Part shown: positions 5,786 to 33,381 of the stretch, piece by piece | Numbering within the stretch: position 1 is the first letter of the stretch | Layout: every line of letters begins with the position of its first letter | Assembly (NCBI GenBank): GCA_963810275.1 | Contig: CAWENF010000014.1 | Location: forward strand, 32,001 to 96,000 | From: an uncultured archaeon | Lineage (GTDB): Archaea; Thermoproteota; Bathyarchaeia; Bathyarchaeales; Bathycorpusculaceae | DNA length: 64,000 nucleotides | Direction of reading: 5' to 3' | Translations under genes and position numbers: made by a program | Notes under the pieces: model-generated | Databases searched by the model: none | What the model was told of the DNA's origin: nothing | Seen by the model: only the letters and a program-made list of their open reading frames with translations

Positions 5786-5859
5786 GCCTCGATAGCTCAG
5801 CCCAGTGGAGCGGCTGCCTTGTAAGCAGCAGGCCGCGGGAGCAAAGCCCGCTCGAGGCT
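5786..5859 (+). tRNA. tRNA-Thr(UGU)
   Basis: Acceptor GCCTCGA/TCGAGGC, anticodon arm GCTGC-CTTGTAA-GCAGC, T stem GCGGG/CCCGC; atypical T loop AGCAAAG. Confidence 0.9.
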
Positions 5860-14753: not shown

Positions 14754-15398
14754 TTAACTTCCTGCCTGTAGCAGCTTAGATTTCTCCTCGTCGGTTAACT
14801 CTTTGTAACCGAGCTTGGTGATTACTATAATGTTGTAGTTGTTGCCGCTTGCTACGTCGCGTTTCATGGCTGCATTGACAGCCTTAGCGATGGTAGGCAA
14901 CGTTTCTTCTATAGTGGAGTCTTCTTTGAATTTGTCTTCCAAAACACCATAGGCAACTGGGCTGCCGCTGCCGGTGGAAACCATTTTTTCTTCGGTTAAG
15001 CTTCCGTAAGGGTCCAAGTTGAACACGTGAGAACCAGATTCGTCTACGCCGCCGACAAGCACTTGAGTTTGAAGGGGAATATATCTGCCTTGGAAAAGAA
15101 GGTTTGCAACCAGTCTTGCCGCTGAAGCAATAGGTATGGGGCGGTTCAGGTTGGTTTTGTAGAGTTGAGCATTGGCGGTTAAGATGTCGACGACGCGTTG
15201 GGCATCTGCGACTGTTCCGGCGATGGTCATGCCGATGTGGTCGTCAATTTTGTAGACTTTTTTGCCTGCTTTGTGAGCAACGTAGTAACCCATGGTTACA
15301 CGGGTGTCAGAGGCTAAGATTACGCCGTCTTTGCATACGACGCCGATTGTTGTGGTTCCTTTGAGGATTAATTGGCTAGCTGGGTTATTTTGTGACAT
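14754..15398 (-). CDS. psmB: Proteasome beta subunit
   Basis: Propeptide followed by LKG|TTTIG catalytic Thr, and STGSGS. Confidence 0.95.
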   Translation of the reverse strand: MSQNNPASQLILKGTTTIGVVCKDGVILASDTRVTMGYYVAHKAGKKVYKIDDHIGMTIAGTVADAQRVVDILTANAQLYKTNLNRPIPIASAARLVANLLFQGRYIPLQTQVLVGGVDESGSHVFNLDPYGSLTEEKMVSTGSGSPVAYGVLEDKFKEDSTIEETLPTIAKAVNAAMKRDVASGNNYNIIVITKLGYKELTDEEKSKLLQAGS

Positions 15399-15574
15399 AG
15401 TTTTTTGCTCCTAAAACTCCGTTTTGCGGAATGCCATCCACTAGGAAGATGCATGAAGTAATCAATCTATGAGCCTAATTAATATTTCGCCAAACATTTA
15501 GAGCAACATATTCCCATATAGAAGTGGCAAAGAGAGGAACATTTTTAGGTAACTGGCGATGTTAGTTGCAACTC

Positions 15575-15644
15575 GGCGCGTGAGTGGTGCTTCCCACCCG
15601 TTGCGCCAAATAAAATAAAACCCGGAGTAGGGAGGCAAATACAG
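15575..15644 (+). promoter_or_regulatory. Structured 5' leader of queT-queC; candidate preQ-type riboswitch
   Basis: Stem GGCGCG/TGCGCC enclosing GTGG-TGCTTC-CCAC, then a 13-nt A-rich linker, then CCCGGAGTAGGGAGG (contains the SD) complementary to the hairpin loop. Confidence 0.5.
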
Positions 15645-16175
15645 TTGAAAATACGAACCAAAGATTTAGCTCTAATAACAATATATGCCGCTTTATATGC
15701 GGCGCTTGTAGTTGGATTAGCACCACTCTCTTATGGACCCCTTCAAATTAGAATCGCCGACGCTATGGTTGCATCAATACCCATCTTTGGCATGGCTGGT
15801 GTTTTGGGACATACACTGGGCGTTTTTGTTGCGAACATGTTCTCACCTTTAGGATTTATTGACTTACTCAACACCATCCCCTCGTTTGTTATGGCATTTG
15901 TGGTTTATTATGTGTATAAACGCACACAAAACGACTACACCATCATCGCTACGTGTCTGACGTATTCAGCGGTTTTGGGCGTTACAGTAGGCTGGATGCT
16001 GTCCCTTTTTGGGGCTCCACTGCTCTTAACTATGGCGTACGTTGGAATTGGCAATGCAATCGCAAGCGTAGCAATCGGTTGGCCCATCTTCAAAGTGCTC
16101 AAAAGCATCGGCGTCTACAAATGGTTCTGCAACTGCACGTACGCCCAGCCTCCGGCAGGCAATGGTTCAAGTTAA
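15645..16175 (+). CDS. queT: QueT family (COG4708) 7-deazaguanine precursor transporter
   Basis: AALYAAL...PLSYGPLQIRIAD...LGVFVANMFSPLG..D pattern; multiple TM segments; adjacent to queC; TTG start with GGGAGG upstream. Confidence 0.85.
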   Translation: MKIRTKDLALITIYAALYAALVVGLAPLSYGPLQIRIADAMVASIPIFGMAGVLGHTLGVFVANMFSPLGFIDLLNTIPSFVMAFVVYYVYKRTQNDYTIIATCLTYSAVLGVTVGWMLSLFGAPLLLTMAYVGIGNAIASVAIGWPIFKVLKSIGVYKWFCNCTYAQPPAGNGSS

Positions 16176-16187
16176 TGGTGAAAAAAT

Positions 16188-16841
16188 ATGGAATCAAGAA
16201 AATGTATAGTCGTCCTAAGCGGCGGACCAGACTCCGCAGTTGTAGCGCACTGGGCTAAAGCTCAGGGTTACCAAATCCACCCCATCACCTTCAAGTATGG
16301 GCAAATCGCCGAGAAAGAAACCCAAGCTGCAAAACAAATCGCCGAGAAACTTGGTACCACAACCAAAGTCATTGACCTCTCAGCGCTTAAAGAAATCTTT
16401 AGCGGCAACACCAGTCTGGTTAGCCGCGATATTCCGTTAACAGCGCAGTTCAGCAGCCCCATCATCGTACCCTTCCGAAACGCCATATTCCTGTCCGCGG
16501 CTGTTGCCTACGCCGTCACCGCCGGAGCACAAATAATCTTTTACGGCGCACACGGCAGCGACGAGCCATTCTACCCTGACTGCCGCAAAGAATTCTACGA
16601 AGCGTTCGAAAAAGCCGCCCGGTTGGGCACTGACTGCAAAATCAGCATCCAAGCACCGTTTAGCGAACTCAAAAAATCTGAAGTTATAACAGAAGGCGAA
16701 AAACTCAATGTACCCTTTGAGTTAACCTGGTCCTGCTATCTCGACGGCAGCAAACACTGTGGAAGATGCGAGTCCTGTGTCAACCGCAGAAAAGCATTCA
16801 AAGAAGCAGCAATCTCTGACCCAACAGCCTACGATGCTTAA
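16188..16841 (+). CDS. queC: 7-cyano-7-deazaguanine synthase
   Basis: VLSGGPDS PP-loop, YGQ, VPFRNAIFL, YPDCR, TWSCY...HCGRCESC zinc site. Confidence 0.95.
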   Translation: MESRKCIVVLSGGPDSAVVAHWAKAQGYQIHPITFKYGQIAEKETQAAKQIAEKLGTTTKVIDLSALKEIFSGNTSLVSRDIPLTAQFSSPIIVPFRNAIFLSAAVAYAVTAGAQIIFYGAHGSDEPFYPDCRKEFYEAFEKAARLGTDCKISIQAPFSELKKSEVITEGEKLNVPFELTWSCYLDGSKHCGRCESCVNRRKAFKEAAISDPTAYDA

Positions 16842-31596: not shown

Positions 31597-33381
31597 CTAG
31601 ACGCCTGCCCAGAACGGAACCTTCTTGCGCATCATGTTGACGTATTCTTTAAGCAGTTCCTGCTCGGGAAGAGTCAAGTCCTCATTGTGTGTTGTCAAAA
31701 GCGCCTTCGCATCCGCCTCAGGCACCTTCACATAAAGCACGTCACGCTCAAACACGTGTCTACCAGCGATTGGTTTATCCATGGAAATCGCCACCTGCAT
31801 ACCAGCTTTAGCTTCACGAATTGATTTGCCTTCGTCCTGCACCTGCTGCACCTCGCCTAACTCAGAGCCGTCTTCAGCGCGCATAAGCGACACCCTCGGC
31901 TTGATGCGGCCAGCCTGAACCTCCACACCTATCACTAAAGGTTTAGCGCGGCGAAAAATACAGTTAGGCAGTACCATGATTTTGCCCGGCTTATATAGTG
32001 CCTCAAATTCTTCTTCACTTTTACGTTCCTTCTTCTCCTTAATCCAAGCCAAGTAGGCGTCAACGAGGTTGTAGATAATTGGGTCACGGAACACCTTAAC
32101 ACCACTTGATTCAGCTTCAATCTCCGCGTCAGGTAGGGCTTTGACGCCGAAAGCCAAAATCGCACCCATTAACGGGTCATGCTGTTTAACAACTGAAGCT
32201 TCTATGACGTCGCGTTTGCTAATTTCACCGATATCTGCGCTTCGCACCTGTACGTTGTTGGCTCGCAGGATTTCCGCAAGGGCCTCCAACGAACCCAAGG
32301 TGTCAGCTTTAACGATGACGCCGTCGATTTCTTTGGTGATTCGGATTCTACCAACTTCTTCAGTAATCATGCGGCAATACTTGGCTACGTTTTCTCCTGG
32401 AGGCACAGCTAACATTGGGGCACCCGCCAAGGCGTCCTCAAGTCCAGGAGCGACGATTTTGACTCCTGCACTGGCGTAGACGCATTCGACTCCGGAAAAT
32501 TTGTCTCGGGGGTCACGCATCTCATCCAGCGGCTTTGGAACCAGAATTGTGCGCACGCGTGCGGATATAGGGCCGTCTTTGCCACCAACTACTACCAAGT
32601 CGTCCTTGTGTAGCGTGCCATCGTAGACGATTGTGTTTAGGGTCATACCTAAGCCGGGTTCCTCTTTGACTTCTAGTATTGCACCTTTTGCTGGGCCGCC
32701 GGTGGTTTGGAGACGTTTTTTGAGGAACTGCTGCGTTAAACCCACAAGTACCATAACGAGCTCTGCGAGTCCCTCGGCGGTTTTGGCGCTAGTAGGCACC
32801 AGCGCGATGTTTTGGGTGAAGTCTCGGATGTGGTCGAATCGGTCTGTTTTAAATCCAAGCCTGCTGAAGTCACCCATGATGCGGTAAAGACTGTTGTTCA
32901 TTTCCTCTTGAACAAAGTTTGATTGAGTAGCAAAAGACTTTAGAAAAGGCATGCCATGCTGAGGCTTCCAACCAGGGATACGATCGATCTGGTTAACAGC
33001 AACGATAAAGGGAGTTTTACGTGCCTTGAGAATTTCGATACACTCAAAAGTCTGCGCTTCAAAGCCTCTCACAGCGTTCACGACGAGTATGGCGATGTCA
33101 GCGACGCTCCCGCCTCTACGCCTAAGGTTAGTGAACGCTTCATGTCCAGGGGTGTCCACGATTAGGAGACCGGGGATTTCGATACCTGTCTTAAAAGTTG
33201 ACATGTATGGTCCGATAAGTTGTTTTAGGGTTTCCACTGGGAAAAAGCTGGCTCCAATGTGCTGGGTCATGCCGCCTGCTTCGCGGACTTGGACGTTGGT
33301 TTTTCGCAGTTCGTCTAGAAGCGAGGTTTTACCTGAGTCGACGTGTCCGAGAACGCAGACGATTGGTTGACGAGTTGGCAC
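31597..33381 (-). CDS. infB: Translation initiation factor aIF5B (IF-2)
   Basis: RQPIVCVLGHVDSGKT, MTQHIGA, DTPGHEAF, KADTLGSLEAL. Confidence 0.96.
   Translation of the reverse strand: MPTRQPIVCVLGHVDSGKTSLLDELRKTNVQVREAGGMTQHIGASFFPVETLKQLIGPYMSTFKTGIEIPGLLIVDTPGHEAFTNLRRRGGSVADIAILVVNAVRGFEAQTFECIEILKARKTPFIVAVNQIDRIPGWKPQHGMPFLKSFATQSNFVQEEMNNSLYRIMGDFSRLGFKTDRFDHIRDFTQNIALVPTSAKTAEGLAELVMVLVGLTQQFLKKRLQTTGGPAKGAILEVKEEPGLGMTLNTIVYDGTLHKDDLVVVGGKDGPISARVRTILVPKPLDEMRDPRDKFSGVECVYASAGVKIVAPGLEDALAGAPMLAVPPGENVAKYCRMITEEVGRIRITKEIDGVIVKADTLGSLEALAEILRANNVQVRSADIGEISKRDVIEASVVKQHDPLMGAILAFGVKALPDAEIEAESSGVKVFRDPIIYNLVDAYLAWIKEKKERKSEEEFEALYKPGKIMVLPNCIFRRAKPLVIGVEVQAGRIKPRVSLMRAEDGSELGEVQQVQDEGKSIREAKAGMQVAISMDKPIAGRHVFERDVLYVKVPEADAKALLTTHNEDLTLPEQELLKEYVNMMRKKVPFWAGV

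Follow-up and report, generated by a model that had tools for sequence, protein, structure and literature searches.

Genes and leader elements at the queT locus

The DNA analysed here is a 64,000-nucleotide (nt) stretch from an uncultured archaeon of the Bathyarchaeia (positions 32,001 to 96,000 of contig CAWENF010000014.1; hereafter the window), and the subject of this study is the leader RNA of its queT gene. As a first-pass annotation made from the sequence had assigned them, the genes downstream of this leader encode QueT (PF06177, E 6.1e-25), an energy-coupling factor (ECF)-type S component predicted to import a 7-deazaguanine precursor, and QueC (PF06508, E 3e-62), the 7-cyano-7-deazaguanine synthase; the two genes presumably share one transcript. 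The annotation had further proposed that the leader is a candidate archaeal riboswitch for preQ0 or preQ1, and on re-reading the sequence we found all of the leader elements that it named at the positions given, including the loop TGCTTC (15588-93), the A-rich linker (15608-20) and the series CCC/GGAGTA/GGG/AGG (15621-35), which reads CCCGGAGUAGGGAGG. Comparative evidence goes far beyond chance expectation and supports the presence of a conserved, structured cis-acting RNA in the archaeal queT(-queC) leader, and this RNA is a real, widespread and uncatalogued cis-regulatory element. In the window it spans ~15572-15644, is ~60 nt long and forms a classical H-type pseudoknot from two helices, P1 and P2. 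The features of the locus are as follows.

14754-15398, minus strand: proteasome beta subunit gene, divergent, upstream of the queT leader
15536-15549, plus strand: predicted archaeal promoter, a purine-rich stretch resembling a B recognition element plus TATA-like TTTTTAGG, centred ~30 nt before P1
15575-15580, plus strand: 5' strand of P1, GGCGCG, pairing with 15602-15607
15581-15587, plus strand: loop L1, UGAGUGG, mostly unpaired; its GUGG can join the inner hairpin
15588-15600, plus strand: 5' strand of P2 (anti-Shine-Dalgarno), UGCUUCCCACCCG, pairing with 15623-15637 in the centroid fold
15601, plus strand: loop L2, a single U between P2 and P1
15602-15607, plus strand: 3' strand of P1, UGCGCC, pairing with 15575-15580
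15608-15622, plus strand: loop L3, the A-rich linker ending AAAACC, with a 5' part of variable length
15623-15637, plus strand: 3' strand of P2, CGGAGUAGGGAGGCA, holding the Shine-Dalgarno (SD) sequence GGGAGG at 15630-15635
15645-16175, plus strand: queT, with a TTG start
16188-16841, plus strand: queC, 13 nt after queT

Compensatory changes in both helices

R1, a covariance model trained on 26 leaders, was given the long-range helix P2 as its sole structure, and its matches are 48-67 nt long. Pairing was counted in two alignments, A2 (26 sequences, aligned with MAFFT) and A3 (101 rows, fitted to P2). A3 includes one false hit (L077:1479-1528, minus strand, E 0.97), which is counted in the A3 pairing, in the pairing of the inner hairpin and in the UGCUUC:GGAGUA test, and which was dropped from the cognate-strand test, the base conservation, the queC count and the energy averages. 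We found that 96.1% of the cells were paired in A2 versus 90.2% after shuffling (0 of 500 shuffles as good; slid controls 43-67%), and 91.9% in A3 versus 83.9% after shuffling (again 0 of 500; slid controls 44-61%), with 11 of the 18 pairs in A3 changed on both sides. P1 and P2 have no bases in common and are separated by one U.

P1 consists of 6 base pairs (bp; alignment columns 1-6 and 35-40), and 98.8% of its cells are paired in A3. Its closing pair, 1-40, is GC in 64 rows of this alignment, AU in 19, UA in 2 and GU in 5, and pair 5-36 is GC in 88 rows and CG in 10, the window having the C-G version. By parsimony on a protein tree of the 87 downstream QueT sequences, pair 5-36 has flipped between GC and CG at least five times independently. 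The innermost pair, G6-U35, is a wobble throughout the family (97 GU and 1 GC among 98 rows). Since P1 is absent from the structure given to R1, the counts for this helix are unbiased, and the outer stem GGCGCG/TGCGCC of the first-pass annotation is supported by compensatory changes in A2, in A3 and on the QueT tree.

P2 is a long-range helix of 12-13 bp between the hairpin-loop sequence CUUCCCACCCG and CGGAGUAGGGAGG, the latter including the SD, and it carries two single-base bulges. Its lower part, CCG:CGG, is nearly invariant, and its upper 8-9 bp form the anti-SD:SD duplex, in which all eight pairs have changes on both sides in A3 and six pairs have 7-20 parsimony changes each on the QueT tree. 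As A3 was fitted to P2, this helix was therefore also checked on A2 and by an alignment-light test of cognate strands, in which the strands of the same leader paired at -15.8 kcal/mol versus -13.8 kcal/mol for non-cognate strands (a difference that 0 of 5000 permutations equalled). The distance from the end of the R1 model to the start codon is -2 to +12 nt in 91 of the 93 matches with a called open reading frame (ORF), and the 3' strand of P2 is therefore the ribosome-binding site. The pairing of CTTCCC with the SD GGGAGG, which had been put forward as the basis of a translational switch, covaries in A2, in A3 and on the QueT tree, and is part of P2.

The other pairings proposed for the leader fared differently. 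The inner hairpin, GUGG (15584-87) with CCAC (15594-97), is paired in 87% of the A3 cells, and strands of one leader did not fit each other better than strands of different leaders (1162 of 5000 permutations as good), so that as a conserved element it is compatible with the sequences without support from covariation. It competes with P2 for CCCAC, the two being mutually exclusive, and it may be an alternative state only. A pseudoknot or kissing interaction between TGCTTC and GGAGTA was rejected, with 63.2% pairing versus 63.0% after shuffling (234 of 500 shuffles as good). We also rejected a local CCC/GGG hairpin (15621-23 with 15630-32) seen in the 73-nt minimum free energy (MFE) fold, since C57-C59 are invariant and it is column 23 with which column 71 covaries (CG 73, UA 18). 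Two further candidates were judged by eye and set aside: a kink-turn (k-turn)/L7Ae site, as GA is not on both strands, and mimicry of the tRNA D-arm, for which a convincing match was not found. The centroid fold of the window RNA is the long-range helix UGCUUCCCACCCG/CGGAGUAGGGAGGCA and not the hairpin of the annotation. In the window, P1 plus the inner hairpin (-16.0 kcal/mol) and P2 (-16.9 kcal/mol) are nearly iso-energetic, and the family averages are -15.6 kcal/mol for folding of the P1 domain and -15.9 kcal/mol for the P2 duplex, the duplex figure being without a loop penalty.

Invariant bases at the helix junction and position in the transcript

Base conservation was counted in 97 distinct sequences. 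L1, with 8-12 nt across the family, is long and conserved (UGAGUGGG; U7 100%, G12 99%, G13 95%). The bases ahead of the 3' strand of P1 are likewise conserved (G32 100%, U34 95%, U35 100%), U35 being paired with G6 and U34 (column 34) being the single base of L2; a one-nucleotide L2 is typical of coaxially stacked H-type pseudoknots. L3 is unpaired in the R1 model, yet A51 is conserved in 99% of sequences and A53-A55 and C57-C58 in 100%, and the A-rich linker that had been noted in the leader is thus present with an invariant AAA. U7, U34, A51, A53-A55, C57-C58 and the G6-U35 wobble are all situated at the P1/P2 junction or close to it. The invariance of the unpaired U7, A51, A53-A55 and C57-C58 is what a ligand pocket or a tertiary fold would lead one to expect, and bases kept constant without a helix to account for them hint at a role beyond masking the SD. 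According to a 2024 review, the ligand of class I preQ1 riboswitches stacks at the P1/P2 junction (PMC11625349).

Upstream of the leader RNA, 70 nt of sequence was available at 96 loci, and the A+T fraction in them reaches a peak of 0.83-0.89 at -32 to -29, counted from the first base of P1. In the window this peak corresponds to AACAUUUUUAGG at 15538-49, and a ACNTTTTTAGG box is also found in relatives of the same genus. An archaeal TATA box is centred ~26-27 nt before the transcription start, and the position of the TATA-like box therefore places the predicted 5' end a few bases before P1. The predicted promoter is thus upstream of the stem and not downstream of it, which had been named as a check on the riboswitch proposal, and the leader RNA is predicted to lie at the 5' end of the transcript.

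Distribution and gene association

In the window's own genome, R1 gave a single match, exactly at 15575-15636 (74.3 bits). Matches were found in 115 of 151 genomes and 53 of 63 genera of the order sample, in 92 of 151 genomes and 52 of 79 genera of the class (Bathyarchaeia) sample, and in 27 of 151 genomes of the phylum sample, mostly with one copy per genome. Outside the class, matches in the phylum sample were confined to three families (9 of 15, 3 of 3 and 2 of 2 genomes). McrA was present in 3 of 3 genomes tested from the family with 9 of 15, which is probably Methanomethylicia-like; the Methanomethylicia are a class with cultured members. A protein search found QueT in 49 of 61 related genomes. 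Among same-genus relatives, 24 orthologues (QueT 58-81% identical) share the leader block GGCGSGUGAG-variable-CUCCYACCCGUUSCGCCAA..AUAAAACCCGGGAGUAGGGAGG, with the start codon of the QueT orthologues, ATG or TTG, at the same position; the spacer between promoter and block and that between SD and start have both diverged freely, so that the block is conserved and its flanks are not. Conservation upstream of orthologous queT genes, on which the original proposal had been made to depend, was strongly positive in both the R1 matches and the paired columns. A pattern scan of viral contigs returned 38 stretches, none of which (0 of 38) passed R1, and these are taken as chance matches.

Two leaders of unusual build were observed. 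At L146:151-320 an R1 match is followed by ~90 nt, a second CCGGAGUAGGGAGG-like SD segment and then QueT; the second segment may represent a duplication of the 3' half, or else a small ORF upstream of queT. At L153:100-140, in a genome without an R1 match (G054), the queT leader has only a P1-like hairpin, GGCGGG-UUGAG-CUCCGCC, followed by UUUACCCC, and may be a degenerate or variant form.

Gene association was evaluated for the 100 genuine R1 matches, all of which lie directly upstream of a same-strand ORF. The gene that follows is queT in 95 cases, queC in one and a gene for an ECF-S-like membrane protein in four. An ORF was called by a simple rule in 93 matches (by phmmer, 87 QueT, 1 QueC and 5 unassigned), and eight QueT calls were made by eye from translations (L092, one of the five unassigned, in another frame, and seven matches without a called ORF). 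Where at least 1200 nt of downstream sequence was available, 38 of 94 loci had queC after queT in the same orientation, and queT stood without queC in about half of the loci. The ECF-S-like protein has ~230 residues and takes the place of QueT after the motif in one family of the Bathyarchaeia (L084:1566-2267, L086:1566-2267, L087:809-1495 on the minus strand and L088:1563-2258). Pfam and NCBIfam assigned it to no family; in the ESM Atlas the nearest clusters carry the name ECF transporter S component (score 0.94), and its similarity to QueT by hhalign is weak (probability 10%). Because the motif precedes it, this protein is likely a candidate new 7-deazaguanine importer.

The genome of the window, which is 92.6% complete, contains one tRNA-guanine transglycosylase (TGT), and neither QueD nor QueF was found in it, a pattern that indicates dependence of the organism on the 7-deazaguanine pathway. 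QueD (PF01242) was present in 13 of 61 genomes (G000 and 60 relatives) and was not found in the other 48, and full-length QueC, where present, adjoins QueT by its coordinates in the relatives. As QueD and QueF were not found in the window's genome and QueD occurs in only 13 of the 61, the Bathyarchaeia studied here look like salvagers of 7-deazaguanine through QueT. The rarity of QueD, with queC right after queT, suggests salvage of 7-carboxy-7-deazaguanine (CDG), the QueC substrate, or of preQ0, rather than de novo synthesis. As QueF was not found, preQ0 and not preQ1 is therefore the likely end product in the cell. Bacterial queT genes are known preQ1 riboswitch targets (PMC5372724; PMC11625349); Zallot et al. 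(2017) link bacterial queT to preQ1 riboswitches and predict preQ0 salvage in archaea (PMC5372724).

Comparison with known RNA families

A search of the leader (15400-15720, 321 nt) against Rfam 15 gave no match at E<=10, the preQ1-I, -II and -III models included, and no preQ1 family matched at gathering score in the 64-kb window; nine related loci gave no match to preQ1-I (RF00522) at E<=1. The leader is therefore not a recognisable member of preQ1-I, -II or -III or of another catalogued family, in agreement with the annotation, which named no consensus that fitted exactly. Its suggestion of a likeness to class II (the stretch GGUGCUU) was not substantiated, as RF01054 gave no match at E<=10.

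A close architectural parallel is preQ1-I (RF00522), which, as described in the 2024 review, is also an H-type pseudoknot; its P1 is short and GC-rich, its L3 is A-rich and could sit in the P1 minor groove, SD bases form part of its P2, and it controls queuosine/7-deazaguanine genes, transporters included, by translation (PMC11625349). The leader RNA is about twice the size of preQ1-I (~34 nt), with a P2 of 12-13 bp versus ~4 bp, an L1 of 8-12 nt versus 2-3 nt and an L2 of 1 nt versus ~6 nt. Class I RNAs have a specificity cytosine before the 3' strand of P1, as UC in type 1 and AC in types 2 and 3, and are listed in that review for bacterial phyla only, whereas the leader RNA is archaeal (PMC11625349). 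Like the leader RNA, preQ1-II (RF01054, the COG4708/queT motif) stands before queT and has the whole SD within a pseudoknot helix, and its ligand is proposed to lie between coaxial helices; according to the same source it is an HLout pseudoknot with four helices and an embedded P4 hairpin, and occurs in Bacillota only (PMC11625349). The leader RNA, in contrast, has two supported helices, and its embedded hairpin is without covariation.

For preQ1-III (RF02680) there was no covariance-model match at E<=10. SAM-II/SAM-V, NAD+-II and guanidine-III are other SD-sequestering riboswitches built as H-type pseudoknots; they share the architecture and the translational logic of the leader RNA and differ in conserved sequences and genes, and they gave no Rfam match. 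Archaea use mainly the thiamine pyrophosphate (TPP) and fluoride classes, both shared with bacteria, as reported by McCown et al. (2017), and these likewise are cis-acting RNAs in 5' leaders (PMC5473149). The leader RNA differs from them in being found solely in Thermoproteota, the one phylum searched. The word 'archaea' is absent from the available text of the 2024 preQ1 review (PMC11625349). Full-text literature searches returned no description of a queT leader RNA of this kind, and supplementary candidate lists might hold the motif.

A candidate 7-deazaguanine riboswitch and the alternatives

The leader RNA has the general features of a riboswitch, namely a conserved structure with compensatory changes, a position in the 5' leader on the coding strand and association with genes of one pathway. 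It is best filed as an SD-sequestering pseudoknot of preQ1-I/II type that falls outside both of those classes, which makes it a candidate new riboswitch class. Its probable role is that of a new riboswitch, archaeal for the most part, that responds to a 7-deazaguanine precursor of tRNA modification. We favour, at a rough probability of 0.6, the reading that it would be a new class of translational OFF riboswitch for preQ0 or a close 7-deazaguanine. We infer that the ligand is the 7-deazaguanine imported by QueT and made by QueC, and that the likeliest one is preQ0, the archaeosine precursor. In the nascent RNA, P1 and the local GUGG/CCAC hairpin would form first and leave the ribosome-binding site free, and without ligand this 5' domain would compete with P2. 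The ligand would be bound at the P1/P2 junction, where the G6-U35 wobble, U7, U34 and the unpaired AAA and CC of L3 lie; binding would stabilise the pseudoknot and bury the SD, so that translation of queT (and queC) would be turned off. A more far-reaching proposal, for which the odds are in our judgement slightly better than even, is that with this RNA archaea would have their first native riboswitch class, one essentially restricted to them. This preQ0-sensing class ('preQ0-I', a fourth preQ class) would have its own P1/P2-junction pocket of the G-U wobble, U7/U34 and two linker cytosines, and would govern archaeosine-precursor uptake in Bathyarchaeia and mcrA-bearing Thermoproteota, which are mostly apparent obligate salvagers.

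If true, riboswitch biology would gain an archaeal case that Rfam 15 lacks and that is widespread within a lineage ranking among the most abundant archaea, and 7-deazaguanine sensing would have a fourth structural solution. The leader RNA would offer a direct way to study how the precursor of archaeosine is acquired by uncultured Bathyarchaeia, and the motif can be used as a marker of gene function, for example for the 230-residue ECF-S-like membrane protein. Because the RNA is small (~60 nt) and also occurs in mcrA-bearing relatives (probably Methanomethylicia), the riboswitch hypothesis is directly testable.

Several points weigh against the preQ0 OFF switch. The window RNA alone is not unusually stable (MFE -21.5 kcal/mol versus a shuffle mean of -20.4 kcal/mol; z -0.35; 65 of 200 shuffles as good). 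The fit of A3 to P2 favours the P2 counts, and the QueT tree rests on a short membrane protein, so that the event counts are possibly inflated. All genomes searched with R1 come from one phylum, Thermoproteota, and kin among them are not independent. The class I specificity cytosine is absent from the 97 distinct sequences, which have GUU instead. The inner hairpin, which represents the free-SD state of the OFF/ON model, is without covariation support; the switch partner is therefore conjectural and P2 might be constitutive. A subgroup of leaders (L129, L133, L141, L142, L143 and L146) is without the CGG of lower P2 and reads ...AAACCCCAAAAGG.... The contigs of three RNA runs and one DNA run cover only the proteasome gene and the 3' end of queC, and the metatranscriptome contigs do not reach the queT leader. 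As a separate observation on the CGG-less subgroup, CUCCGC replaces UUCCGC there, and the invariant AAACCCC and a perfect anti-SD:SD helix of 6-7 bp are kept.

The RNA could instead be a riboswitch with another logic or ligand, which we regard as unlikely though by no means negligible: an ON switch, which with ligand bound would retain just the short CCG:CGG pseudoknot next to P1 and the inner hairpin and leave the SD free, or a sensor of CDG, 7-amido-7-deazaguanine (ADG), guanine or another purine instead of preQ0. L1 (UGAGUGGG) is conserved far beyond the needs of a linker, and P2 alone, at -16.9 kcal/mol, is stable enough to be the default state, both of which would suit an ON switch or another ligand; the inner hairpin on which such a switch would depend is nevertheless without covariation, and an end product usually represses cofactor-like importers and biosynthetic genes, as is textbook knowledge for riboswitches. 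As to the ligand, the failure to find QueD in 48 of 61 relatives together with QueC beside QueT in 38 of 94 loci would fit import of a QueC substrate such as CDG, whereas the occurrence of queT alone, lacking queC, at about half of the loci is in keeping with preQ0 itself being imported. It is fairly improbable that access to the SD is controlled by a factor acting in trans, such as the archaeosine-specific TGT (ArcTGT), another RNA-binding regulator, or an uncharged or unmodified tRNA. Enzymes of the TGT family recognise small RNA hairpins, as bacterial TGT does, and the invariant unpaired nucleotides could equally form a surface for protein recognition. There is, however, no conserved regulator gene beside the motif, whose neighbours are queT, queC and unrelated genes, k-turn-like GA pairs are by eye not on both strands, and in its size, the topology of its pseudoknot, its A-rich linker and the genes it precedes the RNA is like small-molecule riboswitches.

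We consider it quite improbable that the RNA masks the SD independently of any ligand, as a constitutive translational attenuator, an RNA stability element or an RNA thermometer. SD masking is the conserved core function visible in the sequences and the switch partner is unproven, yet P1, the invariant G-U wobble and the invariant AAA and CC would be superfluous for it, and such a mask would not be limited to one transporter family, at one copy per genome, across at least 50 genera and varied habitats. It is very improbable that the RNA represents no new class and is a very divergent preQ1 riboswitch of class I. The topology (P1 of 5-6 bp, A-rich L3, P2 with the SD) and the gene target are the same as in the class I RNAs of the 2024 review (PMC11625349). 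Against this identity, RF00522 gave no match at E<=10 in the 321-nt search, UC or AC is absent before the 3' strand of P1, and the proportions differ (L2 1 nt versus ~6 nt, P2 12-13 bp versus ~4 bp, L1 8-12 nt versus 2-3 nt).

A second leader type and other observations

A second leader type was observed before a paralogous QueT (~33% identical to that of the window) in a few genomes of the same family, at the following loci.

L027:1452-1494
L028:1452-1494
L029:1995-2038, minus strand
L030:1456-1498
L151:171-213
L152:519-561, minus strand
L155:1501-1543, minus strand

It has a 5-bp stem, GGUAG/CUACC, with UUU after the 5' strand and AC before the 3' strand, and an UUAAAAAAC linker, after which C(C)GG can pair with the loop CCG. 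By eye, this leader carries the published hallmarks of class I preQ1 riboswitches, and 91-nt searches of L027-L030 gave no Rfam match at E<=10. It is rare, with one strong match in the 151 class genomes, and G029 has both leader types.

Elsewhere in the window, a tRNA gene at 5786-5859 is the sole Rfam match at gathering score in the 64 kb, and a convergent gene for a DinB-type polymerase lies downstream of queT-queC. Contigs from three metatranscriptome runs cover 15300-15438, the 5' part of the proteasome beta gene, and end at 15428-15438; these ends, 30-40 nt beyond the start codon at 15398, are a weak hint of the 5' end of that mRNA.

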